From a virus (lineage: Duplodnaviria; Heunggongvirae; Uroviricota; Caudoviricetes), in IMG/VR virus record IMGVR_UViG_2609459844_000007, positions 1 through 15,367 of that record: 15,367 bases of DNA; one strand, given 5' to 3'. This document shows, in pieces, positions 1 through 15,367 of the stretch; position 1 is the stretch's first letter; each line of letters starts with the position of its first letter. The notes under the pieces are model-generated. The model was not told where the DNA came from. It was given only the letters and a program-made list of their open reading frames with translations, and did no database searches. The position numbers and the translations under genes are program-made.

Positions 1-84
1 ATGGCGGGTTATTTGTCCTGGTTATTCCCCCGTTGTAAAATCTCTCCTAAACTTAACGGTACGGCACCACACTTCGGGGATGAA

Positions 85-276
85 ATGTTCGCGCTGGTAC
101 TTTTTGTTTGCTACCTGGATGGCGGTTGTGAAGATATTGTTGTGGATGTCTACAACACGGAACAGCAGTGTCTTTATTCTATGAGCGATCAACGGATCCG
201 CCATGGCGGTTGTTTTCCGATTGAGGATTTTATAGATGGTTTCTGGCGACCAGCACAGGAGTATGGTGATTTTTAA
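85..276 (+). CDS. yebW: Small conserved protein, 63 aa (MFALVLFVCYLDGG...), matching my recollection of E. coli YebW; the frame is open from position 1 but ATG at 85 gives the 63-aa product
   Basis: ORF track frame 1..276; internal ATG at 85; convergent with and abutting pphA stop; identity from recalled sequence, not searched. Confidence 0.6.
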   Translation: MFALVLFVCYLDGGCEDIVVDVYNTEQQCLYSMSDQRIRHGGCFPIEDFIDGFWRPAQEYGDF

Positions 277-933
277 TTATTGCAATTGCACAAGAGTCAG
301 TTCGCCCCCAAAGACAGCACCGGTATCAATATAATGCAGGTTGCCAATATCCACGCGATGTCGCAACGGTGTATGACCAAACCAGAAATGATCAGCACCT
401 GTAATTCCCTGCCCTTTTTGGCGTTCACCTAATCGCGAGCGGCTCCACAAGACCTGATGCAAATCAACGTCCTTTTGCCATTCATAAACATCATCTGGAT
501 AATCGGCATGAGCAATAACATGTTTGCCGGTACGACTGTGTACTTCAAGAATAAAGGGCAAATGCTGACATTTTTCCAGCGCCGTTTTCGCTTGTTTCTG
601 TTGATTATCTGCCAGCGCAATAAACCAGTCGCCGCCATTCATCAACCACAAAGACATCTGCTGGGATGCCAGCGCATCCATCGCCATCTGTTCATGATTG
701 CCTCTTACCGCACAAACCCAATGTTGTTCCAGTAACTGCAGACAACGTAAACTTTGCGGCCCACGATCGATAACGTCTCCTACTGAGATAAGTAAATCTC
801 GCCACGGATCAAAACGACAATGCCATAATTTGCGGCGCAACTGCTCAAGACAACCGTGTATATCGCCAGAAAGCCAGATATGTCGCCATTGATGACCCGC
901 AATTCTCTGATAAACGGGCGCAGGCTGTTTCAT
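277..933 (-). CDS. pphA: Serine/threonine protein phosphatase 1 (PrpA), calcineurin-like metallophosphatase, 218 aa
   Basis: Translation contains metallophosphatase motifs GDIHG, GDVIDRG, GNHE; sequence matches recalled E. coli PrpA; track ORF 277..936 begins MMKQ, second Met taken as start. Confidence 0.9.
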   Translation of the reverse strand: MKQPAPVYQRIAGHQWRHIWLSGDIHGCLEQLRRKLWHCRFDPWRDLLISVGDVIDRGPQSLRCLQLLEQHWVCAVRGNHEQMAMDALASQQMSLWLMNGGDWFIALADNQQKQAKTALEKCQHLPFILEVHSRTGKHVIAHADYPDDVYEWQKDVDLHQVLWSRSRLGERQKGQGITGADHFWFGHTPLRHRVDIGNLHYIDTGAVFGGELTLVQLQ

Positions 934-1065
934 CAATATTTTCCTCCCGCGCTAAAGATCACATAATCTTAACAAGAATGTTAAAAAACGCTGGACTCAG
1001 ACAGTAGAGTGTGTGTTATGGTTGACTATAAAGTCAGCGAAGGAAATGCTTCTGGCTTTTAACAG

Positions 1066-1098
1066 ATAAAAAGAGACCGAACACGATTCCTGTTTTCG
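1066..1098. repeat. Left prophage-chromosome junction: imperfect direct repeat of the sdsR 3'-end sequence (ataaaaagagaccgaacacgattcctgttttcgtc), about 29/33 identical to the copy at 14764..14795
   Basis: Direct sequence comparison of the two copies; 8-bp identical block agaccgaa (1073..1080) bounded by mismatches is the likely crossover region. Confidence 0.65.
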
Positions 1099-1397
1099 TC
1101 AACAAACAACAAAATCTTTTAGAATTAATGTGTTAAATAAATTTATGCTCATCTTTTAATCCCTAACACATACCATTACATATTAATACATTCAATTAGT
1201 TACCATTTTTTTCGAGTTTTTTAGAGAAATTTTCGGGAATATTTCAGATCAATCCATGCATACACAAGCAATTCCTGTATTGAATAATTCCGTAGCAATT
1301 ATGTAAAATCACCTCCGGCTGATTTTCATTCAAACTCGCGCTATCGAACGTCCATCAGCCAGCCGTGACACGTTCTTGCATACGACGTGCTACGGTT

Positions 1398-1535
1398 TCA
1401 TTTATCTCCGACCGGAAACTTCTTATACAAAGTCGATACGCCAACATCATAGATGATCGCCACCTTCTGGCGAGAAACTCCTGATGCAATTAGTCGTCCA
1501 GCCTGCGCCCATTGCTCCGGCGTGAGAGTAAGACA
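1398..1535 (-). pseudogene. 3' remnant of a Pin/Gin/Hin-family serine DNA invertase gene (C-terminal HTH only, about 45 codons, no start codon, catalytic domain absent)
   Basis: Minus-strand translation ...LTLTPEQWAQAGRLIASGVSRQKVAIIYDVGVSTLYKKFPVGDK* resembles the recalled C-terminal DNA-binding end of PinE-type invertases; in-frame stop immediately upstream. Confidence 0.7.
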
Positions 1536-1610
1536 TTAAACTGTAGAAAAATCTCATTAAACTTAATATAATAATAAGTTACAGAATTATCTTTACTGAA
1601 TAATAGATAT

Positions 1611-2156
1611 ATGAACATTAGTGAACTTAAAAACTGTATACACTATGAAGTAATAGGTTATAAACGCCCTTTCTCCTGGCGAAAAGCAATTGTTCGCGCA
1701 ATAAAACACAGAAGATTACGTTATTTATTTTGGTGGCGCATAGCAAAATATCTTTTTGATAAAGGCGGATACCGGCGAAAGGTTGCAGGAAAAATAGAAC
1801 GCTTCATTCTTGATAAATACAATGTAACCGTTCCCTTAACTGTAAATATTGGTAAAGGGTTCGACATATCTTATCTCAATGGCGTTGTTATCGGTCACAA
1901 AGTTACAATAGGTGAAAATTGTTCAATTAAGCCTGGAGTAACTATTGGACTTCGCGGTGAATTTAATGATATGGATATTGTCATAGGAAATAATGTAACC
2001 ATCGGCTGTAACGCCACCATCCTTGGTGGCAAAGTGCATATAGGGAATAATGTAAAAATAGGAGCTCATGCATTGGTACTGCATGACATTCCTGATGACT
2101 CCACATTCATTACTAAATTTCACTCTGAAATTATTTATAACTCATCTCACACATAA
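1611..2156 (+). CDS. Hexapeptide-repeat (left-handed beta-helix) acyl/acetyltransferase, 181 aa, CysE/LacA/WbbJ/NeuO-like superfamily
   Basis: Visible [LIV]-G-x4 hexapeptide repeats (VIGHKVTIGENCSIKPGVTIG, IVIGNNVTIGCNATILGGKVHIGNNVKIGAHALV); markedly AT-rich relative to neighbours; convergent with tfa. Confidence 0.8.
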   Translation: MNISELKNCIHYEVIGYKRPFSWRKAIVRAIKHRRLRYLFWWRIAKYLFDKGGYRRKVAGKIERFILDKYNVTVPLTVNIGKGFDISYLNGVVIGHKVTIGENCSIKPGVTIGLRGEFNDMDIVIGNNVTIGCNATILGGKVHIGNNVKIGAHALVLHDIPDDSTFITKFHSEIIYNSSHT

Positions 2157-2166
2157 TTCCGTTTAA

Positions 2167-2739
2167 TCACAGCTCTGGCCATACGATATCCGGGGCTGTA
2201 TTTATATCAATCCGACTCACTAATACCCGGTATTTTTTCCAGGAAGATAGCATCGAGACTTCCTCATCAGTTGCCATTTCAAAATTAACAGCATCCTGCA
2301 GAATTGTTATGTTATCAGTCGCTTCCTGGATTAATCTTGCCTTTTTCTCTTCCGCCTCCCGGATCCGGAACAGTTTTTCTGCTTCTGCATCTTTCACCCA
2401 AGCTGTGCCGTTCCACTTCTGAAACTCCCCATCCGGCGACAACCAGGTGACATTTTTCGGTAATGGGCCAAGTTCAGAAATAAATAACGCGTCGCCGGAA
2501 GCCACGTCATAGACGGTTTTACCCCGATGGTCTTCAATGAGATGCCACGATACCTCATCACTGTTGAAAACAGCCACAAAGCCAGCCGGAATATCTGGCG
2601 GTGCAATATCGGTACTGTTTGCTGGCAGACCTGTATGAGGCGGAATATATGCGTCACCGTCACCAATAAATTCATTAGTTCCGGTCAGCAGATTATAAAT
2701 TTTGATGGTTCGTGATTGTTCACTCATTCTGAATGCCAT
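2167..2739 (-). CDS. Tail fibre assembly protein (Tfa family, P2 gpG-like), 190 aa
   Basis: C-terminal region ([18 protein letters not shown]...[25 protein letters not shown]) matches the recalled conserved Tfa C-terminus; start overlaps tail fibre stop. Confidence 0.85.
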
Positions 2740-3854
2740 TATGCAAGCCTCACAATATAGTTAAATGCGATGTTTTTGACGGTGTTTTCCGCGTTACCAG
2801 CAGCGTTAACGGTGATGGTGTGTCCATGTGAGCCAATTGCAACGGAGTGCGTATGTGCACCAATACCGACAGTATGTGTATGCGCCCCAGCACTTGCTGC
2901 AGTACCTGATACTGAGTGGGTATGCGCGCCAGCAGAATTCGTTGCACCTAAGTGAGTTTGAGCAGAGTTCGACGAAGCTACTCTACCGGAGCTAACGTTA
3001 GCATTATCCCCCTGAGATATCGGATGCGTATGTGCACCTGCTGAAGCTGCTGTTCCGCTAACGCTATGGGTATGCGCACCAGTGTTATTCGTAGATTTAG
3101 TTCCATAATCAAACGATGATGTGTTTTTTGTCCCTAAATCTGTATTTGAAGCACTGGCGCTGTGGGTGTGCGATTTAATGCCGTCCTGTTCCTGGCTAAG
3201 AACATCACGTCCACTTGCAGGCTTACCTTTGATTGTCCAGCCACGCATATCAGGGATCACGCCTGACGGATAAGCGGCTGCAAGTTTCGGGTATGCAGAC
3301 TTGTCAAAAGTCTGTCCCTGCATCAGAGCATAACCAGATGGAACTGTATCTGATGGCCACGGGATCGGGGCACCTACAGGAAAGGTCGAATTATTTTCCA
3401 AACCAAGATATTTAAGGACATCAGCAACAGAGCTTTTTGCCAAAATATCTCGCCCAACCTGTGTCAGGTCAGCCAAATTAGCGGTATCTTGATTGGTAAA
3501 ATACGGTAATTTGTTTTCGGATGCTGAAAGATTAGCAAGTGCGGTAAGTATGGCATTAATTCTCTGATAGTTCTTATCTAATGCAGACGACATTTTTGCG
3601 ATAAAGCCTGCCTGATCGCCATCGTCCTGTACATCCAGTCCACTTTCATTTGCTGTATATTGTGCCATTGCAGATGCAATAAAGCTGGCCTGCCGAATAA
3701 CCTTATTGACTTGCGCACTGGATGCTTTCCCTGCTGTAAATCCGGATAAAAGCGCAGGCAACGCTTCCCATTCCTCCTGCGGCATAACATTGGCATTTTT
3801 ACCCGTTGCAAACGCTTTAAAGTCATTTTTCGCCATCAGAGTAATACTCCCCAT
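2739..3854 (-). CDS. Phage tail fibre protein (P2 gpH-like N-terminal region, collar-type C-terminal domain with GAHTHS repeats), 371 aa
   Basis: Segment [37 protein letters not shown] resembles recalled P2 gpH; repeated [19 protein letters not shown] motifs; position upstream of tfa. Confidence 0.8.
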
Positions 3855-4516
3855 GCTCCTATATCAAAACCACTGATGAATTCGTTATCCATATCAAAAC
3901 CAAAAAATTTTGAGCTTTCCGATGGGGTTTCCACCGAAGGTGTTTCAATGCCACCCGCCCATACCCCGGCGGCTTTTACTGTGAGATACCCCTGTTTAAT
4001 TGCCGCAATTAACTCACGCGATACATCTGAAATATCAGTATCAGGAAAGACCCAGACCGATATCGTCATGTCCTGGTTATCGACTATCTGCATTCGCAGC
4101 CCGGCTCCTGCTGTTACAGCGTCAAGAATTGCCGGAAGCGAATCATTCCGTCCGTCCCAGTTATTAATCGCAATCTTCGCTTTAAGAATGACACGATAGG
4201 TTTCATCGCTGAGGTACATGTATCCGGAATCAGGATCGTATGGTCCCTGCCATACCCCCTGATCATATCCAAGCCCGTCGGTATCCCAGCTGAAATAGAC
4301 ACCTGAGATAGGCTGGCTGACAATACGGCTACGTCCGATCCACAATCCCAGAATGTCAAGTTGCACACCAACCGCAGAGTCAATATCAAATGCAGTAATC
4401 AGCCCTCTGGTGGCAGCCGCAACATCAATAAGCGGCCGGGTCATCAGATCAACATGTGCAAGAAATTTAGGTTTGGTGGCGTGATAGTTTGTGATTAGTT
4501 CGGTGTATTTGCCCAT
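3836..4516 (-). CDS. Putative phage baseplate/tail protein (P2 gpI / e14 YmfQ position), 226 aa
   Basis: Long ORF between baseplate-J fragment and tail fibre in J-I-H-G order; overlapping start/stop coupling with both neighbours; family assignment by position only. Confidence 0.5.
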
Positions 4517-5094
4517 GACTCCACCGTTATAACGATATTTTCCGGGGTACAGGACGCAGATTCGTTATATCTGATATCAATGTTTGATGACGACAAAGCC
4601 CCCGGGGATTTCCCAATCGTCAGTTCCTGAATATCGTAATAGCGTGCATTCCCGCCACTCGCCACGCCAAGATTCGCCGGTGAGTAAATGCGACTTAAAA
4701 GGACTGAATCACCAATCGTCAGACTATTGATATAGTCGGAAATAGCCTGCTGGATCTGCTGCCCTATCTGTGAGGTATAACCCGTAAAAACTTTTAATTT
4801 AATCCGGGCATAAACAGGCACATCACTGGAACGCGAGAATTTGATTACATGGGGATTGCCGTATTTATCCGGAACCGTAACGGATGTTGTACCGTGAGTG
4901 GCTGTCCCCTGGCCTTTATTCCCTCTGATAGCCTGAGCAATATCCGTCACATCACCGCCATCCACAATTACAGCAACAGAGTGTGGCGGTAACCCGTTAC
5001 CGTCCTCCGAACCAGTATCGTTTTCATAGAGTTTGTGGCGGGTTACACCGGTAACATTAGAAACAGCACCATCCAGTGCTTCAAATGGGGTTAA
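4495..5094 (-). pseudogene. Baseplate J-like protein, C-terminal fragment (5' end deleted)
   Basis: ORF has no plausible native start (track begins at a TTG inside the junction); reading frame runs directly out of the truncated dnaC-like gene; position upstream of gpI-like gene. Confidence 0.6.
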
Positions 5095-5497
5095 CCACAA
5101 TCACTGTCTGACCGTCTTTCAGCAGGCGATTCCCGATAGCTGCCGCTAAGTGATTCTTCCCGGTACCAGGTTTTCCGCTGAACGCAAAATTTGTACACCC
5201 GGTCATCAGTTCATCGGCGATGGATTTCGCCTGGCTTAACGCGTGTCGCTGGCCGTCGTTCTGCACCTGGTAATTCGCAAACGAGCATTTACGGTGCAAC
5301 GGCTGGATGCCTGAGCGATTCAGAATTTTTTCCACCCGCAACTGGCGATTCAGGCGGTTGATCTCCTCGCTACGTTTCTGGCCTTCAGCAAGTTGCCACT
5401 CGCGCCACTCCGCTACCGTTCTGAATGGTGCGGTTACATGTGGCGGAGTCAGTCGGCGGATGCGTTCCAGAACGCCGCCTGTCGCAATATTTTTCAT
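5081..5497 (-). pseudogene. DnaC-like phage replication protein (helicase loader, YdaV-like), N-terminal 135 aa only; reading frame leaves DnaC homology after ...GQTVIVV and stops
   Basis: Strong resemblance to recalled E. coli DnaC N-terminal half including Walker A GKPGTGKNHLAAAI; DnaC homology ends at about 5093 then NPI-stop. Confidence 0.8.
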
Positions 5498-5503
5498 GGT
5501 CCG

Positions 5504-6298
5504 TTACCCCCTGAAGCCTGGCGGGATCGCACTGTCCGGCAACGAGACGGTGTTAACCTGTCGGAGCAACGTCTCAGGCCGAACACCTTTCGGCGCGAAC
5601 AGGCCCTGGTATTCATTGGCGATACTGTGTCGAATCACCTGCTCGGGTGTAAAACCCTGCTGGCGGAATTTTTCCAGCTCCCGTATCGCCCCGTTAGCGC
5701 CCTGCTCCGTTCGAATCGGTTTTCGCAATGCCTGCCTGAACCGGACCCACTCATGCCAGAGTGTTTCCGGCAACCAGTCAGGCAGCTCAATAGCCTCCGG
5801 CTCAAATTTTTTAGACGCTCGTTTTTGGCGAGGGGGATTTAGGGGGAGATCAGTATTTATATCTTCCTCTTCCTCTTCCTCTTCCTCTGGTAACGCTTTT
5901 TGATCCATTTGTGTAACGCTGCCAGCGTTACCTTTTCGTTTCAGTTCGCGTATTTTTGTAACTCGCTCGTTTGTAACCGCCCGTTTTTTAGAGCTTTTTC
6001 CGTTATGACGTTCAAAGTTAGGTAGAGAAAGCCCAACGTCATTTTCGACCAGCCATCCAACCTGAATTAACGCATCAGCAAAACCAGCCATAAAAGTGAT
6101 GCGATCTATTGCACTTTTTGTAACGCCGCGAGCGTTACAATCTGCATTACCGTCTATCATTTGTTGATCCGCCCATGCCCAGAAGCGAATAACCTTCCCT
6201 AATGCGGCATCTGGATCAATATTCAGAATCTCAGCAAGCCTGAATATTTCCGGCTTATCCGGCGTAATAACCTCGAGCTTTATCCAGTTTGAAGCCAT
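5504..6298 (-). CDS. Phage replication initiation protein (YdaU-like), 264 aa, with internal poly-Glu tract
   Basis: Position between CII-like gene and dnaC-like gene as in Rac (ydaT-ydaU-ydaV); family assignment by position and recollection. Confidence 0.65.
   Translation of the reverse strand: MASNWIKLEVITPDKPEIFRLAEILNIDPDAALGKVIRFWAWADQQMIDGNADCNARGVTKSAIDRITFMAGFADALIQVGWLVENDVGLSLPNFERHNGKSSKKRAVTNERVTKIRELKRKGNAGSVTQMDQKALPEEEEEEEEDINTDLPLNPPRQKRASKKFEPEAIELPDWLPETLWHEWVRFRQALRKPIRTEQGANGAIRELEKFRQQGFTPEQVIRHSIANEYQGLFAPKGVRPETLLRQVNTVSLPDSAIPPGFRG
5863..5888. repeat. Simple sequence repeat (cttcct)x4, encoding the EEEEEEEE tract of the replication protein on the minus strand
   Basis: Direct reading of sequence. 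Confidence 0.9.
5913..5931. promoter_or_regulatory. 19-bp palindrome gtaacgc-tgcca-gcgttac (copy 1 of 3), candidate protein-binding site/iteron
   Basis: Perfect 7-bp inverted arms with 5-bp spacer; same arms recur at 6120 and 6312. Confidence 0.45.
6120..6138. promoter_or_regulatory. 19-bp palindrome gtaacgc-cgcga-gcgttac (copy 2 of 3)
   Basis: Direct reading; 207 bp from copy 1. Confidence 0.45.
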
Positions 6299-6311
6299 TT
6301 GTTTTCACCTT

Positions 6312-6330
6312 GTAACGCTCGCAGCGTTAC
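6312..6330. promoter_or_regulatory. 19-bp palindrome gtaacgc-tcgca-gcgttac (copy 3 of 3), just upstream of the replication gene start
   Basis: Direct reading; 192 bp from copy 2. Confidence 0.45.
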
Positions 6331-6375
6331 ATTTAACTGATACCGAACAAAACAATCCGGCACGATTAATTTCAA

Positions 6376-6798
6376 TCAATGCACTACGACAGAATCGCCG
6401 GGCGACCCACCACCGCTGAAATGTGCTTTCCGGTAAACGGCCTGGACTGCATCATCATGCGCATCAATTGCCGTACTCAACGCTTCCTGCGCCGCCAGTA
6501 ATGCACGGCGTTCCAGGGTATCGAAGATGCAGAGTCGGTGACGCAGCTCGCGCGGAAGAATTGCCAGAACCGCAGGGATCAGTTTCTGAATTTTTTCCCT
6601 TTGCGCTTTCGTTTCACCTTTCAACCAACGGTGATAGATATTCTGCTGATTGTTCCAGTCCTTGCCTGGTACAAGGGGCAATTCGCCGCCCCCCTGGCGC
6701 AGATATTCTTCAGTAATTGCGTTAGCGACCCACGCCTGCCCTTTTTCGGCTGCCAGGGCTAACAACACTGATTCGATGTGCTCATGCCTGATTTTCAT
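6376..6798 (-). CDS. ydaT: YdaT-like (CII-like) prophage regulatory protein, 140 aa
   Basis: Sequence resembles recalled Rac YdaT; overlaps upstream Cro-like gene by 4 nt; position downstream of cro. Confidence 0.7.
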   Translation of the reverse strand: MKIRHEHIESVLLALAAEKGQAWVANAITEEYLRQGGGELPLVPGKDWNNQQNIYHRWLKGETKAQREKIQKLIPAVLAILPRELRHRLCIFDTLERRALLAAQEALSTAIDAHDDAVQAVYRKAHFSGGGSPGDSVVVH

Positions 6799-7037
6799 GA
6801 ATCAACCGCTCCTATGCTGTTTTCGCTATGCTTACCGTCTGGGGGGAATACATCGTCAAGTCCACAATGAGCGCCAAGCCGATTAAGGGTAGAAACAATT
6901 TTTCTGCACTCCTCTAGTCCAGGGGTACGAAAATTTGCTTCGTAATTTGCCAGTCGGCTTTGTATCCACCCTAACTGAACAGCAAGTTGTCTTTGAGACA
7001 GCCCAAGCTGTTTTCGATATGTTGAAATTTTGTTCAT
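6795..7037 (-). CDS. Cro-like HTH DNA-binding protein (YdaS-like), 80 aa
   Basis: HTH LGLSQRQLAVQLGWIQSRLANYEA; divergent from repressor gene; GGAGG Shine-Dalgarno 6 nt upstream of ATG. Confidence 0.75.
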   Translation of the reverse strand: MNKISTYRKQLGLSQRQLAVQLGWIQSRLANYEANFRTPGLEECRKIVSTLNRLGAHCGLDDVFPPDGKHSENSIGAVDS

Positions 7038-7061
7038 TGAAAACCTCCGATGACAATTTTA

Positions 7062-7122
7062 AACACACCTTGTGTTATATGGTCAAGCTGTTTTGTGTTT
7101 TATGTAAATCACGATTCGTGAT
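7062..7122. promoter_or_regulatory. Right operator region: inverted repeats aacac-N5-gtgtt (7062..7076), degenerate copy (7085..7099), atcac-N5-gtgat (7108..7122) at 23-bp spacing, between divergent cro-like and repressor genes
   Basis: Direct reading; candidate -35 TTGACC on minus strand (complement of 7081..7086) for the cro-like gene. Confidence 0.6.
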
Positions 7123-7133
7123 ACAAGGATGCA

Positions 7134-7553
7134 ATGGAAAAAGAAAACGAAAAAATTGCCGCCAGTAGGCTCAATGACAAAATTGCAATGCGTCTTAAAG
7201 AGCGCAGGCAGAAGCTTGGTTTATCTCAAGGAAAACTTGCTGAAATCTGCGGATGGACGCAATCGCGTATAGGTAACTATGAGGCGGGCAGCAGAAATGT
7301 TGGAGTGCATGACGCTGTCGTATTGGGAAAGGCACTTGGCATATCTCCTCCTGAGCTCCTCTTTGGAGAACAGGAATCTTCTGAATTGTGGTTAAATGAA
7401 TCCCAACGAAAACTTCTTGAGTTGTTTAACCAGCTACCGGGCTCAGAACAACAACGAATGATTGAGCTATTTGAAGTCCGGCTAAAAGAAATCGATGAGT
7501 ATGTAGAAAAATATTTGAGAGGCAGGCTTAAAGATAATCCCCCACCGGAGTAA
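7134..7553 (+). CDS. CI-like prophage repressor, XRE-family HTH, 139 aa, no LexA/S24-like peptidase domain
   Basis: HTH LGLSQGKLAEICGWTQSRIGNYEA nearly identical in the recognition region to the Cro-like protein; divergent arrangement across operators. Confidence 0.8.
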   Translation: MEKENEKIAASRLNDKIAMRLKERRQKLGLSQGKLAEICGWTQSRIGNYEAGSRNVGVHDAVVLGKALGISPPELLFGEQESSELWLNESQRKLLELFNQLPGSEQQRMIELFEVRLKEIDEYVEKYLRGRLKDNPPPE

Positions 7554-7583
7554 TGATCTTGCTATCACAGTAATATGCCAATC

Positions 7584-7608
7584 AGCCCGCTATCAGCGGG
7601 CTTTTTTG
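7584..7608 (+). terminator. Rho-independent terminator after repressor gene (agcccgct-atc-agcgggct + TTTTTTG)
   Basis: Perfect 8-bp stem, 3-nt loop, U-tract. Confidence 0.75.
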
Positions 7609-7637
7609 TACCATCATCATATGACACTCACCGAAAA

Positions 7638-7679
7638 AACACATTTCGTGTTGACATAAGAAAACGCATTGTGTTTAAT
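7638..7679 (+). promoter_or_regulatory. PL-like promoter (TTGACA 7651..7656, 17-bp spacer, TTTAAT 7674..7679) with overlapping operator aacac-N5-gtgtt (7638..7652) and a second degenerate operator (7661..7675)
   Basis: Direct reading; same operator motif and 23-bp phasing as in the right operator region. Confidence 0.6.
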
Positions 7680-7853
7680 AAGCATATCCAAACAACGCCC
7701 CATCAGAGAACGGCAGGACAATACCTCGAGTTATCCAGTCACTGAACAGGGCTAAGTAGCCAGCCTGAGGCATACGAACATGACGGCAGTTGTTGATTGA
7801 TACAAAGCGCAGTAGATAAAACGTTCCGCCACCCGGCGTTAAGGGGAAAAAAG

Positions 7854-8072
7854 ATGGTTGGTGAAGATCTGGTTGTTATTAACGGTCAATTGTGCAGCAA
7901 AGATGTGGCAGCCATGCTTATTAGCAAGGTTCTTCCAACTGTGCTGGAGGTCATTGCAGAAAAAGTAAAGGCTGGTCGTCCAGACAAGGAAGTTGAAGAG
8001 GCGGCAAAAACAGTTGTTCATGCCGCTACAGAAGCAATTATTTTGAAGAGCCTAGTTTCGCCCAAGCCTTAA
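7854..8072 (+). CDS. Hypothetical small protein, 72 aa (MVGEDLVVINGQ...), first ORF downstream of PL-like promoter
   Basis: Strong SD AAGGGG 7 nt upstream of ATG at 7854; T7 tract 8085..8091 downstream; no recognisable family. Confidence 0.5.
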   Translation: MVGEDLVVINGQLCSKDVAAMLISKVLPTVLEVIAEKVKAGRPDKEVEEAAKTVVHAATEAIILKSLVSPKP

Positions 8073-8232
8073 GTGAATCGGCGCTTTTTTTAGCATCACG
8101 TTCATTGAGTAGTGACAAAAACTCATTCTCAGCATTCTCGATTTCCGAGAAAAATTCTTGATGAGTTGTTTCTCGCTGCGATCTGATGCTGAAAACTAAA
8201 GCAAGTAGCCAGGCTTTGTCTTTATTATCCAT
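8038..8232 (-). CDS. Hypothetical small protein, 64 aa (MDNKDKAWLLALVFSIRSQRE...), convergent with and overlapping the 3' end of the 72-aa ORF
   Basis: SD AAGG 7 nt upstream of ATG; candidate sigma70 promoter on minus strand (-10 TATACT = complement of 8267..8272, -35 TTTACC); no family recognised. Confidence 0.35.
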   Translation of the reverse strand: MDNKDKAWLLALVFSIRSQRETTHQEFFSEIENAENEFLSLLNERDAKKSADSLKAWAKLGSSK

Positions 8233-8418
8233 AGGAATACCTTATTACTGGTTGTGTGAGAACTCCAGTATACCACCGAGCCTGAAGTGGTAAAAAGACA
8301 GGCGCACAACACGAAGGCGCATTTCCGGTATTCATAAAGAGTCGGACTTGTCTGTTAAATTTAAATGGTGGGAGTGCGCCTCCGGTTGTAAATAACGACA
8401 TTGCTATGTGTAGTCTTT

Positions 8419-8462
8419 GGCGGCATCAGTTCTACTCCGTGGCTGCCCTGCCGCCCCTTTTT
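8419..8462 (+). terminator. Terminator-like GC stem (ggcggca ... tgccgcc) followed by TTTTT, inside noncoding region upstream of kilR
   Basis: Direct reading; large loop, so strength uncertain. Confidence 0.35.
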
Positions 8463-8627
8463 AAAGTGAATTTTGTGATGCGGTGAATGCGGCTAAGCGC
8501 ACGCGGCACAGTTAAAAGCATCAGTGTTATGGGTGGATTATCCGGCGTTAATTGTTAACTGGTTAACGTCACCTGGAGGCACCAGGCACCGCATCGACAA
8601 AATTCATTTGTAAAAATGGTGATAATT

Positions 8628-8849
8628 ATGATTGCTCATCACTTCGGAACTGATGAAATACCACGTCAGTGTGTGACCCCTGGCGATTATGTTCTTCATG
8701 AAGGTCGGACATATATCGCCTCGGCAAACAATATTAAAAAGCGAAAACTTTATATTCGAAGCCTGACAACAAAAACATGCATTTCTGACTGCATGATTAA
8801 AGTCTTCCTCGGTCGTGATGGTTTACCTGTAAAGGCGGAGTCATGGTAA
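8628..8849 (+). CDS. kilR: KilR-like cell-division inhibitor (Rac kil), 73 aa
   Basis: Sequence [35 protein letters not shown]... matches recalled Rac KilR; gene order kilR-ydaE-racC-recE; track ORF starts 12 nt upstream at 8616 without an SD. Confidence 0.8.
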
Positions 8850-9019
8850 TGACTAAGAAAATAAAATGTGCTTATCACCTTTGCAATAAAGAAATTGAAG
8901 AAAGCAAAATCATTACAAGACCACTTCATTTCATGCGTGAAGTTATACCAACGACGGAAATGAAAAAATATTGTAGTGAAATCTGTGCCGAAAAAGACCA
9001 GATGGCACACGAACTTTAA
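8849..9019 (+). CDS. ydaE: YdaE-like small Cys-rich metal-binding protein, 56 aa (not in ORF track because under 60 aa)
   Basis: Manual translation [56 protein letters not shown]; start overlaps kilR stop (TAATG); position as in Rac. Confidence 0.7.
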   Translation: MTKKIKCAYHLCNKEIEESKIITRPLHFMREVIPTTEMKKYCSEICAEKDQMAHEL

Positions 9020-9093
9020 TTAACTGACTATCCGAAACTGAATTTATGCCAGCAATGGCAGGGATTCGCTCAACCTTAATTAAGGAGAAAAAC

Positions 9094-9369
9094 ATGATTA
9101 CCAGTTATGAAGCCACTGTTGTTACTACTGATGACATTGTTCACGAAGTCAGCCTGGAAGGAAAGCGTATTGGCTACGTGATTAAAACAGAAAATAAAGA
9201 AACCCCTTTCACTGTGGTTGATATCGACGGTCCATCAGGCAACGTTAAAACGCTTAACGAAGGCGTCAAAAAAATGTGCCTGGTGCATATCGGAAAGAAT
9301 CTGCCCGCAGAAAAAAAAGCCGAATTTCTGGCAACTCTGATTGCAATGAAATTAAAAGGTGAAATCTGA
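9094..9369 (+). CDS. racC: RacC-like protein, 91 aa
   Basis: AAGGAG SD 6 nt upstream of ATG at 9094; sequence matches recalled Rac RacC; track ORF starts further upstream at 9046. Confidence 0.8.
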   Translation: MITSYEATVVTTDDIVHEVSLEGKRIGYVIKTENKETPFTVVDIDGPSGNVKTLNEGVKKMCLVHIGKNLPAEKKAEFLATLIAMKLKGEI

Positions 9370-9374
9370 AAGAA

Positions 9375-9399
9375 ATAGCCTGCGTATGGCGCAGGCTAT
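9375..9399 (+). other. Perfect 10-bp inverted repeat hairpin (atagcctgcg-tatgg-cgcaggctat) without U-tract, between racC and recE
   Basis: Direct reading. Confidence 0.6.
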
Positions 9400-9469
9400 G
9401 AACAGTGTGTATCCGGCAAGATTATTCACTGAACAAACGAATTTTAATCTGAGTTGAGGTTAAAAAACA

Positions 9470-12400
9470 ATGAGCACCGATAAACAAGTTTACCCACTGT
9501 ATTACGAAGCAAAAAATGACAAAGTAAGAAAACGTCTCGGTATTAAAGGCGGTTTTTACTGGGCTGAAGCGAAAAAATTATCCATTGCCATCTCCCGTGG
9601 TGCTGTTGCGATTGACGATGCTGGCTACGATGAAGATGACTTCAAAAAACCTGTTCGCGTCAATTTGCCCGTTGTTGATGACCTCCCGCCAGAAGGCGTA
9701 TTTGATACGGAATTCTGCAACCGTTACGAAAAAGGCGGGGAAGATGGCATCACAATGGTATTTATCGCGCCCTCACCCTCTGCGCAGGGCAAACCAGCCG
9801 GCACTGACAACACCAATGTTAATGGCGAAGACATGACGGAGATTGAGGAGAATATGCTACTCCCGATTTCTGGCCAGGAGCTGCCCATTCGCTGGCTTGC
9901 TCAACACGGCAGCGAAAAACCGGTAACGCACGTTTCACGCGACGAACTCCAGGCATTACACATTGCACGGGCTGAGGAACTACCAGCTGTTACTGCCCTA
10001 GCTGTTTCCCACAAAACCAGCCTGCTCGATCCGCTGGAAATTCGCGATCTCCACAAACTGGTGCGTGATACTGACAGAGTTTTCCCTAATCCAGGCAATT
10101 CAAGCCTGGGACTGATGACTGCTTTTTTCGAAGCATACATGAACGCAGACTACACCGATCGCGGTCTGCTGACAAAAGAGTGGATGAAAGGAAATCGTGT
10201 TTCACGCATCACGCGCACGGCTTCCGGCGCTAATGCTGGCGGCGGGAACCTCACCGATCGCGGCGAAGGTTTCGTTCACGATCTGACGTCACTGGCGCGC
10301 GACGTAGCCACTGGCGTACTGGCTCGTTCAATGGACGTGGACATTTATAACCTTCATCCGGCACACGCTAAACGTGTCGAGGAAATTATCGCTGAAAATA
10401 AACCGCCCTTTTCTGTTTTCCGCGACAAATTCATCACCATGCCTGGCGGGCTGGATTATTCCCGCGCCATCGTGGTTGCCTCCGTAAAAGAAGCACCAAT
10501 TGGGATCGAGGTTATCCCCGCACACGTCACTGAATATCTGAACAAAGTACTGACTGAAACTGATCATGCCAACCCTGATCCGGAAATCGTGGATATTGCC
10601 TGCGGTCGCTCCTCTGCCCCGATGCCGCAGCGTGTAACAGAAGAAGAAAAACAGGATGATGAAGAAAAACCGCAACCATCTTGCGCAATGGCAGATGAAC
10701 AGGCAACGGCTGAAACAGTGGAACCGGATGCAACTGAACATCATCAGGACACGCAGCCGCTGGATGCTCAGTCACAGGTAAATTCTGTTGATGCGAAATA
10801 TCAGAAACTGCGGGCAGAACTCCATGAAGCCCGGAAAAACATTCCGCCCAAAAATCCTGTCGATGCAGACAAATTACTGGCTGCCTCTCGCGGAGAATTT
10901 GTTGAAGGGATTAGCGACCCGAATGATCCGAAATGGGTTAAGGGGATCCAGACCCGCGATTCTGTGTACCAGAATCAGCCAGAAACGGAACAGAACGACC
11001 AGAAAGCGGAACAGAACAGCCCAAATACGCAACAAAACGAGCCAGAAACGAAACAGCCTGAGCCAGTAGTGCAACAACTGGAAACGGAGAAAGTTTGCAC
11101 CGCCTGCGGTCAGGCTGGCGGCGGCAACTGTCCTGACTGCGGCGCGGTGATGGGCGACGCAACGTATCAGAAAACCTTTAATGAAGAAAATCAGAATGAA
11201 TATCAGGAAAAAGGTCTGGAGGAAATGGAAGGTGCTGAACATCCGCACAAGGAGAACGCTGGCAGCAATCCGCATTGCGATTGCAGTGATGAAGCTGGTG
11301 AAGCGACAGCACCTGTAGTAACTGAAATCATGTGGCCGTCATATTTCGAGCCTGGCCGCTATGAAAACCTCCCGAACGAGGTTTATCACTCCGCCAACGG
11401 AATAAGCAGCACAATGCTGAAGGATGCCCGCATCAGCCTGATGTATTACCACGGACGGCACATTGCCGGAACTATTCCGGGCGAGGAAAGTGATGCATTG
11501 CTGCGTGGGCGAATTATTCACAGCTATGTTCTGGAAACGGATAAATTCGCTGATGAGTATGCCATTCCGGTACCGGTTCCTGAATATGTGGTTACTACTT
11601 CTAACGAACTGATCGCCATCATTAAAAAACACAATGCCAGTCTGCCAGCACCGATGACACCAGAGCAGATGAAAGAGTGGATCGAAAGCTACAACAGCAC
11701 TCTTATACAGCCACTGTCGGTAAGTGCCGGGGCCGAAGAAACAGGCATCCTTTACGGTTCGCTTCCGGAGGAATTCCGGCGTATTCCTGAGGGGGAAAAA
11801 CACACAGCATCAGCAATGAAAGCCTGTATTAAAGAATACAACGCAAACCTCCCTCCTCTGTTGAAAACCAGTGGATCACGGGAGCAACTTCTGGAGCAAA
11901 TTGAAACTGTAGATCCAGAACTGGCAAAAAAAGAACGTGCTAAATCTTTGCCTTACAACATCAGTGGCACAAAAGAGCAATTAACCGAAATCGCACGGAA
12001 AATTCGCCCGGAACTGGTGACACTGGAAGACTGGCAAAAACGCCAGCAAGAAGAAAACGCCGGGAAAACGTTTATCAGTCCGGATATGTATGAACAGGCA
12101 AAAAATATTCACGCTGCACTGCAAAACAATACCGATGCAGCAAGGCTACTCAACCACCCGGATCGCAAATCTGAAATCAGCTATTTCGGGTTTGATGAAG
12201 AAACCGGGCTGGAAATCAGGGTCCGTCCTGATATCGAAATCCGGCTGCCATACGAAAGCATTTGCGCCGACGTGAAGTCAGTCAGCCTCGGTTATGTGCG
12301 ACAGGAACGACTGAAAGATCGCCTGCACCGTGAAATTATTGAGCGTGATTATCACCTCAGCGCAGCAATGTATTGCGATGTGGCAAACCTGGACAAATTT

Positions 12401-12766
12401 TTCTGGATCTTCGTCAACAAAGATGCTGGCTATCACTGGGTGGCCGTCGTGGAAGCCTCGCAGGAACTCCTGGAACTTGGTCGACAGGAATATCGCCGGA
12501 CGCTACGACAGATAAATGAAGCTCTGGAGACAAACAACTGGCCAGCACCGATTACCGAAAGTTATACCGACGAATTAAACGACTTTGATCTTCGTCGTCT
12601 TGAGAAGATGATAAATAACCTGCCTTCATCAGGTGATCCAGAAGCAGAACAAAAATTTATTGCTCTGGAAAATACGCTGAATGCTGCACGACCACATCTG
12701 GGAGAATTATATGAGGCGTATAAAACGACACTGACAGATATGAAACCAGAATATATCGGCTCCTGA
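9470..12766 (+). CDS. recE: RecE-family exonuclease VIII homologue, 1098 aa, with divergent C-terminal PD-(D/E)XK nuclease domain carrying a ~150-aa insertion and a C-terminal extension
   Basis: N-terminal/central ~600 aa closely resemble recalled K-12 RecE (e.g. [43 protein letters not shown]); Cys4 cluster [16 protein letters not shown]; PD...DVK motif at 12227..12276. Confidence 0.85.
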
Positions 12767-12774
12767 TATTTACT

Positions 12775-12798
12775 ATGGCGGTGTAGCCTCACCGCCAT
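12775..12798 (+). other. Perfect 9-bp inverted repeat hairpin (atggcggtg-tagcct-caccgccat) between recE and ralR
   Basis: Direct reading. Confidence 0.6.
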
Positions 12799-12829
12799 AA
12801 CAAAACTTTATTTTATGAGAGAAAAGACA

Positions 12830-13024
12830 ATGCGGTATGAAAAAGTCAAACCATGTCCGTTTTGTGGTTGTCCATCAGTAACGGTGAAAGCCATTTCAGG
12901 ATATTACCGCGCAAAGTGTAACGGATGCGAATCCCGAACTGGCTATAGTGGAAGTGAAAAAGAAGCACTCGAAAGATGGAATAAACGAACTACTGGAAAT
13001 AATAATGGAGGTGTTCATGTATAA
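12830..13024 (+). CDS. ralR: RalR/Lar-like restriction alleviation protein, 64 aa
   Basis: MRYEKVKPCPFCGCPSVTVKAISGYYRAKCNGCESRTGY... matches recalled Rac RalR (Lar); Cys4 motif; track ORF begins at upstream ATG 12815. Confidence 0.8.
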   Translation: MRYEKVKPCPFCGCPSVTVKAISGYYRAKCNGCESRTGYSGSEKEALERWNKRTTGNNNGGVHV

Positions 13025-13205
13025 AATTACTGCCACTATTGAAAAGGAAGGTGGCACTCCTACTAACTGGACAAGGTACTCAAAAACAAAATTAACCAAA
13101 TCAGAATGCGAAAAAATGCTCTCAGGTAAAAAAGAAGCAGGCGTTTCCAGAGAGCAGAAAGTAAAGCTGATAAATTTTAATTGCGAGAAGCTTCTGTCCT
13201 CGTGA
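13017..13205 (+). CDS. ydaC: YdaC-like small protein, 62 aa
   Basis: GGAGG SD 5 nt upstream of ATG 13017; overlaps ralR stop; resembles recalled Rac YdaC; track ORF starts at 12948 inside ralR. Confidence 0.65.
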   Translation: MYKITATIEKEGGTPTNWTRYSKTKLTKSECEKMLSGKKEAGVSREQKVKLINFNCEKLLSS

Positions 13206-13260
13206 GTTGCATTATATACAAATTAGAACTTCATAGCTGATTATTAAAAATCAACCACCC

Positions 13261-13289
13261 CCGCCAGTATTCTGTATATTTACTGGCGG
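13261..13289 (+). other. 9-bp inverted repeat hairpin (ccgccagta ... tactggcgg, 11-nt loop) between ydaC and xis
   Basis: Direct reading. Confidence 0.55.
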
Positions 13290-13305
13290 TCATATCGTAA
13301 GAGGT

Positions 13306-13592
13306 ATGGCAATGAATCTTGTGACACTAAAAACGTGGGGAAACTCAGATATCCAGATAACCCACCATCAATATCAACGCTGAGACGATGGGCAAGGAAT
13401 GGAAACATTTATCCTGCACCTGAACTACACGGGAGGAGTTACAGGGTGGTTCCGGAGGCTTTCTATATCAACCCAAATAAGGTTGATACCGATATAACAC
13501 ACCATCAGCCTAATGGGCGACAAGGGAGAGACAGTCCGTTACTGGAGAAGTTAAAACATGCAGCGGAAAAAATACGATCCCAATTTGCCTAA
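13306..13592 (+). pseudogene. Excisionase (lambda Xis-like winged helix) with apparent -1 frameshift in a G4 run (13337..13340); downstream frame opens with GTG at 13335
   Basis: Frame 1 from ATG 13306 encodes MAMNLVTLKTWG then stops; frame 3 continues KLRYPDNPPSISTLRRWARNGNIYP...; together they align with the recalled lambda Xis N-terminus (LTLQEWNARQRRPRSLETVRRWVRE). Confidence 0.55.
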
Positions 13593-14634
13593 AAACTTAA
13601 CATATCGAAGGAGGGACAAAGCATATTACTGGCGCAACCCTATGACGAAAGAAGAATTTACACTAGGTAAAATTTCAAGAAGAGATGCAGTAGCGCAGGC
13701 AATTGAAGCAAATCATTATATATACAAAAACTACTCTCCTGCTGCCTTAATTGAAAAGCTTAAAGGGTTCGACTCATTTACTATGGCAGACTGGATTGAA
13801 CGTTACAAAACGATTCTTATAAGGAGAAAAGTGTCCAGAAATACTTATAAAATTCGGGTAAATCAACTGGAGACAATAAAAGAAAAATTGGGAGGGATTT
13901 TACTGACAGAAATAACCACTCGCCATATTGCCGAGTTTCTTGATTTGTGGATTGAAGGAGGGAAAAACACGATGGCAGGATCAATGCGTTCTGTGTTATC
14001 TGATATGTTCCGCGAGGCCATTGTTGAAGGACGTATATCTCAAAATCCAGTAACGCCAACAAGAGCACCGAAAATAGTAGTTACAAGAGAACGGCTGAAA
14101 CTAAAGACATACAACTGCATCAGGGAGGCAGCAGATCAACTTCCGACATGGTTCCCATTAGCTATGGACTTAGCCCTTGTAACAGGACAACGTCGCGAAG
14201 ACATAACGAATATGCGGTTCAGTGAGATTTATGATGATCGTCTCCACATCAGGCAAATTAAGACAGGAATGATGATTGCTATCCCCCTGTCACTCAGCCT
14301 TCCTGTCGCTGGTTTACGACTTGGTGCAGTAGTTGAACAGTGCCGCATGGTAAGTAGGGGGGATTATCTAATCAGTGCCGGGATTAGAAAAAACAGCCCT
14401 GACGGTAGCATTCACCCGGACGGCCTGACAAAGAAATTTGTCGCAGCCAGAAAATTAACAGGTATCCAGTTCAGTGAAAACCCACCAACTTTTCACGAGA
14501 TCAGAAGCCTGGCTGGACGATTGTACAAAGAAACATGTGGAGAAGAATTTGCTCAGCGTCTACTTGGCCACACATCGGAGAAGACAACAAAAATGTATCT
14601 TGATGAGAGAGAAAAAACGTACTTACTGCTCTGA
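13558..14634 (+). CDS. int: Tyrosine integrase, lambda Int family, 358 aa
   Basis: N-terminus aligns with recalled lambda Int (PPNLYIRNNGYYCYRDPRTGKEFGLG versus [27 protein letters not shown]); catalytic-region motifs [21 protein letters not shown]-terminal Tyr in TTKMYLDE. Confidence 0.9.
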
Positions 14635-14710
14635 TTTTAACGTAAATGGATTGTTAAATGTATTTTGGTTGTGATATAACCAAAAAGACCGGAATACAGA
14701 AATTCGAGTA

Positions 14711-14730
14711 AATTTCGGGGAATTTCGGGG
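14711..14730. repeat. Tandem direct repeat aatttcgggg x2 in the int-proximal att arm; candidate arm-type integrase binding sites
   Basis: Direct reading; related motif aaattttcgggaat at 1227..1240 in the opposite arm. Confidence 0.4.
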
Positions 14731-14763
14731 AGACGTTTGCAACTAATTGATTTTAAATACAAT

Positions 14764-14795
14764 TAAAAAAAGACCGAATACGATTCCTGTATTCG
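14764..14795. repeat. Right prophage-chromosome junction: att-core copy that is also the terminator hairpin of sdsR
   Basis: Imperfect direct repeat of 1066..1098; perfect hairpin gaccgaatac-gattcct-gtattcggtc. Confidence 0.65.
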
Positions 14796-14868
14796 GTCCA
14801 GGGAAATGGCTCTTGGGAGAGAGCCGTGCGCTAAAAGTTGGCATTAATGCAGGCTTAGTTGCCTTGCC
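14764..14868 (-). ncRNA. sdsR: SdsR (RyeB) RpoS-dependent small RNA, about 105 nt
   Basis: Minus-strand sequence GGCAAGGCAACUAAGCCUGCAUUAAUGCC...GGACCGAAUACAGGAAUCGUAUUCGGUC(U)n matches recalled SdsR; sigmaS-type -10 CTATTCT (complement of 14874..14880) upstream; terminator hairpin plus U-tract. Confidence 0.85.
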
Positions 14869-14955
14869 CTTTAAGAATAGATGACGACGCCAGGTTTTCC
14901 AGTTTGCGTGCAAAATGGTCAATAAAAAGCGTGGTGGTCATCAGCTGAAATGTTA

Positions 14956-14996
14956 AAAACCGCCCGTTCTGGTGAAAGAACTGAGGCGGTTTTTTT
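14956..14996. terminator. Bidirectional rho-independent terminator (accgcccgttct ... agaactgaggcggt flanked by A5 and T7) serving ryeA (+) and yebY (-)
   Basis: Direct reading of stem and flanking U-tracts on both strands. Confidence 0.65.
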
Positions 14997-15025
14997 ATTG
15001 GAAATCAAAAGGCTATTTTAGGTAA

Positions 15026-15367
15026 TTAACAGAGTTTTTCAGCTCGTTCTATAAACGGTGCCAGACTCATTTTTTCGCCGGGATTGTTAGGATCATCAAT
15101 CTGAATCACCGAAATGGGTTGGGCTTTAGTCTTCCCACTGGCAACTTCCTTTTGTGCGATATCGTTTAAAGGATACTGCACGAGGGTACTTGGGTTAATG
15201 ACATACAAAGCATTACCCGGTCTGCAAGTCAGCATCACCTCTTCGCGATTAAACGCCCATTTGTCTTTACCCACTTCAAAACGACTGACGGTAATCACCT
15301 GCGGTGCAGCCAGCGCCGCTGCAGAACTGGTGAGTAACAGAAACGTCAGAATACTTTTTTTCATCAT
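15026..15367 (-). CDS. yebY: YebY, DUF2511-family secreted protein with signal peptide, 113 aa
   Basis: [23 protein letters not shown] signal peptide; matches recalled E. coli YebY; start codon is the last triplet of the window. Confidence 0.85.

Follow-up and report, generated by a model that had tools for sequence, protein, structure and literature searches.

Insertion of a lambdoid prophage remnant in the sdsR terminator rebuilds the SdsR 3' end and separates ryeA from its promoter

In the 15,367-nt stretch of viral DNA analysed here (IMG/VR record IMGVR_UViG_2609459844_000007, positions 1 to 15,367; hereafter the window), a lambdoid, Rac-like, RecET-type prophage remnant of 13.7 kb is inserted in the terminator of the small RNA (sRNA) gene sdsR (ryeB), and positions 14682-14884 are its right attachment site, attR. 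The rewiring of ryeA, the antisense gene that overlaps sdsR, and of the SdsR 3' end is real; its mechanism has already been described in Salmonella, and the window holds an Escherichia coli instance of it. SdsR, a conserved sRNA under sigma-S control, regulates porins, tolC and mutS. It is toxic if overproduced, and is held back both by RyeA and by the transcription of ryeA. An earlier note on the window had proposed this rewiring together with a phage-borne replacement promoter for ryeA, an element called P-A below. Taken as a whole, the account favored here is judged likely: the attR of a lambdoid remnant, with sdsR rebuilt and ryeA split, where the promoter likeness of P-A is incidental and antisense transcription is lowered. 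Coordinates of the features are collected in Table 1.

Mapping of the attachment sites

The crossover was mapped by joint alignment of the attP of a free phage record (PP818812.1, 47.5 kb), which lies intact between the integrase gene and the tail-fibre genes, with the attB of E. coli K-12 and the attL and attR of the window. In attP the segment ACGATTCCTGT is preceded by AATTAAAAAAAGACCGAAT and followed by TTTCGTCAAC, and in K-12 attB the same segment stands between AGATAAAAAGAGACCGAAC and ATTCGGTCCA. The attR (14761-14800) has attP sequence on its left and attB sequence on its right, the attL (1064-1103) is the reverse combination, and the four sequences align as a single crossover in ACGATTCCTGT would predict; a partial copy of the attachment site is thus seen at the left junction. 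T14779 and A14770 are phage alleles, C and G being found there in all six E. coli empty sites examined. Because the crossover lies in ACGATTCCTGT, the U7 tail and the 3' stem arm of the SdsR terminator are phage DNA. DNA of the integrase and attP region is 97.6% identical to PP818812.1. A tyrosine integrase of the lambda Int type would have put the phage into the intrinsic terminator of sdsR. About 33 bp of the phage attP closely match the 3' end of sdsR, so that strand exchange within the shared segment would rebuild a complete sdsR. Rebuilding the end of the target gene is common in phages that use the 3' ends of RNA genes.

Two records touch on this mapping. PP818812.1 is titled 'Actinobacillus phage vB_Apl-pPE4', has RecET genes and carries an attP matching the E. 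coli sdsR terminator (loci L125/L126). Its host label looks doubtful, because its integrase and attP are nearly those of the E. coli prophage, it has RecET and its attP fits E. coli sdsR. The second record, E. coli ECMA0423 (CP178302.1, near 6008; locus L096), has the same phage arm with an attR that reads AAAGAACCGAAC, with an additional A and the bacterial C allele; the crossover may have been resolved differently there, or a homopolymer may be misassembled.

SdsR and its 3' end

The regenerated sdsR is full length, as the Rfam model RF00111 (SdsR_RyeB) matches 14765-14864 on the minus strand over model positions 1-100 of 100, with 118.1 bits against a gathering score of 38. Its tail is UCUUUUUUUAAUU in the window and UCUCUUUUUAUCUG in K-12; the K-12 tail given in the earlier note, UCUCUUUUU, agrees with the K-12 sequence. 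That note had derived the tail from the phage arm, which stands, and had taken the terminator hairpin for bacterial, which holds for a part of it, since alignment with attP places the 3' stem arm in phage DNA. Compared with the UCU5 tail and G.U pair of K-12, SdsR of the window has a U7 tail and an A-U pair. The predicted hairpin energy is the same for both pairs (-15.3 kcal/mol), and therefore the tail alone differs; the phage stem allele was ruled out as a terminator strengthener on the same ground.

The rebuilt form was compared with a set of at least 116 sdsR loci, about one per species, from the matches listed in a genome scan (Salmonella enterica subsp. enterica is not among them). Among 116 such loci, the tail is U7 in 48 and UCUC in 65, and 89 have the T stem allele. 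Since the U7 tail and the T allele are frequent across species, the rebuilt SdsR is, by this comparison, the common enterobacterial form, and the change of tail falls within natural SdsR variation.

Separation of ryeA from its promoter

In K-12, pphA, ryeA/sdsR and yebY follow each other without intervening DNA, and the RefSeq annotation places ryeA at 1923066-1923337 and sdsR at 1923104-1923207. RyeA was suggested earlier to start 15-25 nt past the SdsR 3' end; the K-12 annotation and published mapping give 38 nt (PMC6610125). The 5' end was mapped in K-12 by primer extension and rapid amplification of cDNA ends (RACE), and the promoter was knocked out by changing its -10 to CTCGAG, with primers that show a -10 TATGGT after TGt and a 5' end AAAGTCAGCG (PMC6610125). 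In the window, the Rfam model RF00101 (SraC_RyeA), which spans the conserved part alone, from the tail region onward, matches 14761-14905 on the plus strand with 179.1 bits against a gathering score of 37. The K-12-style contiguity of the promoter and the first 53 nt with the RyeA body is broken (992-1030 as against a body from 14780), and the promoter now lies 13.7 kb from the body. The displacement of the native promoter to the left junction, put at 1000..1070 in the earlier note, is therefore confirmed with corrected distances. A K-12-type RyeA cannot be made, because its promoter and first 53 nt remain at attL, and with the promoter so far off any anti-SdsR RNA must begin in phage DNA.

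The same insertion separates pphA from sdsR. Compared with the K-12 pair (Choi et al. 2018; Sci Rep 2019, PMC6610125), the window keeps the SdsR body, the sigma-S promoter, the RyeA body and the RyeA terminator; it differs in the stranded RyeA promoter and 5' segment, and in its severed sdsR-pphA unit. In K-12, part of the expression of pphA comes from transcripts that start at the sdsR promoter and read through; transcription of ryeA interferes with that of sdsR, and when the ryeA promoter is mutated this interference is lost and both SdsR and sdsR-pphA read-through rise (PMC6610125). In the window sdsR and pphA stand 13.7 kb apart through the prophage, and pphA would lose the expression that it owes to the sdsR promoter.

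Architecture of the phage arms

The DNA between the integrase gene and the crossover (14635-14779) is most simply read as recombination machinery, the P arm of the site. An integrase homologue or remnant occurs in 17 of 116 listed loci, 92-289 nt from the crossover, the distance being 92-147 nt in all but the nearly identical L096. The layout common to their P arms begins with a conserved block and a core-like repeat, continues with three tandem arm-type sites (AWTTTCGRR) and an A/T-rich segment, and ends at the core. This layout is kept in about 17 species of the listed loci, among elements whose integrases are 47-95% identical. The arm motif WWTTTCGRG occurs six times in the window against 1.6 expected, and four of the six lie within the two arms. 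Of 117 listed loci, 12 have the strict IHF consensus, invariably between -35 and -41 relative to the crossover; of 2340 control segments, 8 have it. Direct repeats at 14682-14699 and 14767-14782 are formed by the core's left half, AAAAAGACCG(G)AATAC, and the repeat is kept in related P arms. A 15-nt inverted repeat (14651-14665 with 14755-14769) was set aside, not being conserved in relatives.

Possible sources of antisense transcription

Antisense transcription would now come from phage DNA, by integrase read-through or from one of three weak promoter-like elements of the P arm. The first of these is P-A. The hexamers pointed out in the earlier note (TTGCAA at 14737-14742, 15 bp, TACAAT at 14758-14763) are present, and a consensus scan reads the element as TTTGCA-16-TACAAT, with 9 of 12 positions matched; the role of replacement promoter is unsupported, as the element is at chance level, is not conserved and overlaps an IHF site. 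The scanned region holds two such sites against 1.5 +/- 1.1 expected. A rough sigma-70 matrix, with hexamer frequencies that are textbook values, gives its two readings 9.6 and 9.45 bits, a rank of about 31 among 214,690 configurations. About 30 configurations in the 15-kb window are equal or better. There is about one element as good per kb, both strands counted, and 2.6% of random 37-nt zones contain one. P-A is specific to the lineage of this phage; it was not found conserved in related P arms, whose best scores in the same zone are 2-9 bits, and the zone reaches at least 9.4 bits in 6% of 115 listed species loci compared with 2.6% of control zones. The promoter likeness of P-A is most likely incidental, a by-product of A/T-rich binding sites.

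It is doubtful that P-A is a working phage-borne sigma-70 promoter, which would start near 14770 and give a sponge RyeA of about 229 nt, without the normal 5' end but covering all of SdsR. Such a promoter would agree with a -10 that fits at five of six positions, with the critical A2 and T6 kept, with a total score above that of the validated ryeA promoter, with the detection of P-A by the consensus scan as well, and with the presence of the sequence in free-phage attP. It would, however, have a short spacer (15 or 16 bp) occupied by the IHF consensus, and in the free phage it would face convergent tail genes and have no gene to drive. Neither the number of such sites nor their conservation, described above, favors it. 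Its RNA would also be about 43 nt shorter than K-12 RyeA, whereas for Shigella and Salmonella strains, in which other DNA may flank sdsR, Frohlich 2012 reports an SraC exceeding that of E. coli by about 35 nt, its putative -10 being shifted upstream by about 35 bp (PMC3333887). The supplements of the Shigella M90T transcription start site paper, searched by gene names and locus sequence strings, gave no match. P-A is thus a reasonable but unsupported candidate among several, plausible but unproven.

The other two elements lie further upstream. The conserved block P-B (8.0 bits) has the motif [A/T]TGT[T/G]A-N18-TGnTATAA[C/G/A], found in 28 of 116 listed species loci (L003-L121), among them loci without a remaining integrase (Klebsiella, Raoultella), at -108 to -131 from the crossover; 29 of its 31 occurrences in 1.85 Mb of other loci are at or near the same spot. 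The TGn extension is present in 29 of 29 copies, that of the window included. A replacement promoter about 100-120 nt left of the crossover, either P-B (start near 14687, RNA of about 312 nt) or TTAACG-18-TATTTT (start near 14673), would yield a RyeA about 40-55 nt longer than that of K-12, and seems unlikely on balance. The constant geometry of P-B at one position speaks for it, as do the enrichment of promoter-like elements in this zone (about 100 nt left of the crossover, 56% of listed species loci reach at least 8 bits, against 6% of controls), where the validated ryeA promoter and its integrase-borne homologues also fall, and a predicted lengthening of about 40 nt that fits the longer SraC of Shigella and Salmonella. 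On the other hand, position 6 of the '-10' is never T in the 29 copies, which is atypical for sigma-70, and the spacer is conserved too, with half-sites TGTTAAA and TGTGATA 21 bp apart that could be protein-binding repeats, for example Xis sites. A profile search did not detect homology of P-B to the integrase 3'-end promoter described below. The link of the longer SraC to P-B is tentative. P-B may be either a weak promoter or a protein-binding site, the latter because of the missing T and the conserved spacer.

A third possibility, to be held tentatively, is that no dedicated promoter exists and that anti-SdsR RNA is a 3' untranslated extension of xis-int transcripts, running through attR to the ryeA terminator. 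Such read-through is possible because the integrase gene is co-oriented with ryeA, ending 145 nt before the crossover, and a terminator scan found no terminator-like site on the plus strand between the integrase stop and ryeA, although the scan was crude and failed to detect even the terminator of ryeA. Nor does a U tract follow the sdsR hairpin when it is read on the plus strand. Against this, integrase transcription is usually low in an established or defective lysogen.

Expected effects and weight of the evidence

Whichever source applies, antisense transcription would probably be below the level of an empty site, which would relieve transcriptional interference on sdsR and raise SdsR. Balbontin, Figueroa-Bossi, Casadesus and Bossi reportedly described altered ryeA/ryeB expression on lysogeny by phage PhiW104 in J Bacteriol in 2008. 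In a review, PhiW104 lysogeny in Salmonella is stated to lower ryeA transcription and raise ryeB (PMC7380047). By analogy, a change of ryeA and SdsR in the same direction is expected here. The suggestion in the earlier note that the SdsR/RyeA balance could differ from that of an uninserted strain is thus borne out as far as likelihood goes: given the distance of 13.7 kb to the ryeA promoter and the PhiW104 precedent, the balance is likely altered.

Several points weigh against the account favored here. P-A scores above the validated ryeA promoter (8.5 bits) and the sdsR promoter (7.3 bits) of the same window, and because it outscores them its activity as a promoter must still be reckoned with. 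Binding of IHF, integrase and Xis is deduced from sequence motifs alone, and since the prophage is a remnant, selection may have ceased to act on its recombination sites. What is said of PhiW104 is second-hand, through a review.

Origin of the native ryeA promoter

The sequence that holds the validated ryeA promoter may itself have come from a phage. The final 65 nt of intact integrase genes from a second clade of sdsR-targeting elements can be aligned with window 958-1023. These elements are present in Enterobacter, Lelliottia, Kluyvera, Citrobacter and Leclercia, and the C-terminus of their integrase is TKKYLDARGAEYVMV before the stop. The final codons of the intact second-clade integrases contain TGGACN-19-TGnTATGGT; opposite the validated -35 and -10 stand TGGACG and TGt-TATGGT of these codons, and the spacer is 19 bp in both. 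Six intact integrase 3' ends were combined into a profile, which matched this spot alone in K-12 and in the window, and over the 116 listed loci 49 of its 54 matches were at the expected place and strand. When the profile was iterated without Escherichia sequence, K-12 1195-1260 was matched with E = 6.5e-5 in round one and 1.9e-7 in round two (9.3-Mb search space). The loci can be graded as a decay series, from an intact integrase through a truncated gene with arm sites and a 65-nt fossil to the E. coli form.

These alignments give moderate confidence that the native ryeA promoter of E. coli is phage-derived, a fossil of about 65 nt from the integrase 3' end of an older element at the same attachment site. 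Because the promoter region aligns with integrase 3' ends, what counts as an 'empty' site in E. coli resembles an attR left by an earlier insertion, and the end of an integrase gene seems to have been domesticated as the native promoter. With lambdoid NinI phosphatases PphA shares 48-50% identity, and its gene has the orientation that a nin gene would have if the prophage ran in the direction of the one seen here; pphA may be a relic of the same old prophage. If this origin is true, RyeA/SraC began as a transcript pointing out of integrative elements, and its promoter is swapped again with each further insertion, that of the present prophage included, which would explain the poor conservation of ryeA beside a conserved sdsR. 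No statement of such an origin was met in the literature searched, which did not include Balbontin 2008, and it is a more novel lead than the rewiring.

Occurrence and related systems

To classify the site, a 261-nt query over the K-12 site was used in 5426 complete E. coli genomes, coverage of at least 80% being counted as empty; an 84-nt empty-site query was rejected, being unable to tell empty from occupied sites, as 90% of its length is matched by attL too. With the 261-nt query, 5191 genomes have an empty site and 235 (about 4%) an occupied one, and 228 of the 235 have this integrase and arm next to yebY. The whole window was not found in complete E. coli genomes, the maximum being 67% covered. 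Occupied strains have lost the link of RyeA to its mapped promoter and that of pphA to sdsR, and for this reason K-12 results on the pair may not transfer to them.

The closest precedent is that of PhiW104-type insertions in Salmonella enterica (PMC7380047 and reference lists). There, too, the phage enters at the terminator end of ryeB, at a point inside ryeA, and phage DNA takes the place of the 5' part of ryeA; the site is a recurrent hot spot, and expression of the pair changes on lysogeny by PhiW104, as is expected here. The cases differ in host, Salmonella as against E. coli with a Rac-like RecET remnant.

The site also resembles attP and attR of lambda in its arm-binding tyrosine integrase, repeated arm-type sites in both arms, adjoining xis-int pair and IHF consensus between the arm sites and the core (in the window a motif only). 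Lambda differs in its intergenic attB, as opposed to an sRNA terminator, and in the order and number of sites, the window having three tandem P-arm sites and a core-like repeat. Integration at tRNA or tmRNA 3' ends is alike in that the target RNA gene has its 3' end, half of a hairpin included, copied in attP and is regenerated. Compared with these targets, the sdsR locus is bidirectional, and because antisense ryeA overlaps sdsR, regenerating sdsR necessarily breaks ryeA.

Other features of the prophage

The 13.7-kb remnant contains tail-fibre, replication and immunity genes, a RecE-like open reading frame (ORF), ralR, xis and the integrase gene, as judged from ORFs and annotated relatives.

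Table 1. Positions of the features discussed, numbered along the window
Feature	Position	Strand	Basis
pphA (phosphoprotein phosphatase 1)	277..936	-	ORF; K-12 annotation
Fossil integrase 3' end (putative), holding the validated ryeA promoter	958..1023 (K-12 NC_000913.3 1922994-1923060)	+	nhmmer profiles from intact integrase 3' ends
Validated ryeA promoter: -35-like TGGACT 992-997, 19-bp spacer, TGt, -10 TATGGT 1017-1022, +1 at 1030	992-1030	+	PMC6610125 primers, K-12 annotation
First 53 nt of K-12-type RyeA (+1 = AAAGTCAGCG...), stranded at attL	1030..1082	+	K-12 annotation, alignment, RACE
attL crossover segment ACGATTCCTGT; C1082 bacterial allele, T1094 phage allele	1083..1093		four-way att alignment
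P' arm, arm-type sites TTTTTCGAG (1208-1216), ATTTTCGGG (1229-1237)	1094..1245	+	collinear with free-phage attP
xis, excisionase-like ORF	13335..13592	+	homologous gene annotated excisionase in NZ_CP027766.1
Tyrosine integrase, lambda Int type, reading toward attR	13558..14634	+	Pfam Phage_integrase, Phage_int_M, Arm-DNA-bind_1 (weak)
P-B, conserved P-arm block, TTGTTA-N18-TGaTATAAC; predicted start ~14687	14651..14680	+	matrix, 8.0 bits
TTAACG-18-TATTTT in P arm	-10 at 14661-14666	+	matrix, 8.7 bits
Core-like direct repeat AAAAAGACCGGAATACAG, 85 bp upstream of core copy	14682..14699	+	repeat search; conserved in related arms
Three tandem arm-type integrase sites AAATTCGAGT, AAATTTCGGGG, AATTTCGGGG	14699..14731	+	motif; same triple repeat and core distance in relatives
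P-A, promoter-like element of the earlier note, TTTGCA-16-TACAAT or TTGCAA-15-TACAAT; predicted start ~14770	14736..14763	+	consensus scan, matrix
IHF consensus CAACTAATTGATT (YAANNNNTTGATW), filling the P-A spacer	14740..14752	+	motif match, fixed position in related arms
sdsR (ryeB), regenerated full length	14765..14868	-	Rfam match, transferred K-12 coordinates
Phage-derived SdsR 3' end: U7 tail 14765-14771, most of 3' terminator stem arm 14772-14779	14765..14779	-	att alignment, fold, terminator scan
attR crossover segment ACGATTCCTGT, over terminator loop and adjoining stem bases	14780..14790		attP/attB/attL/attR alignment
ryeA bacterial part, nt 54-272 of K-12 RyeA (219 nt), terminator ~14960-14996	14780..14998	+	Rfam, K-12 offset
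sdsR sigma-S -10 TATTCT	14879-14874	-	PMC6610125 primers, matrix scoring
yebY, beyond sdsR/ryeA	15026-15367		ORFs, annotated relatives

The RecE-like ORF (9470-12766) encodes 1098 aa and has ralR directly after it, whereas relatives have a 1049-aa RecE and a separate RecT; because it runs straight to ralR, recT seems to have been deleted or fused in this prophage. The exact protein has its sole occurrence in the draft assembly GCA_000703525.1. Rfam matches inside the remnant include a DicF homologue (8405-8456, 61 bits) and the RalA antitoxin RNA (13023-13201, 212 bits), next to ralR at 12815-13024. On the left side, a hexapeptide-repeat acetyltransferase ORF (1611-2156, plus strand) adjoins the tail-fibre genes; a promoter match of 10/12, TAGAAA-17-TATAAT (1544-1572), stands directly upstream of it, and the stranded ryeA promoter, which has the same strand, likewise lies upstream of the ORF.

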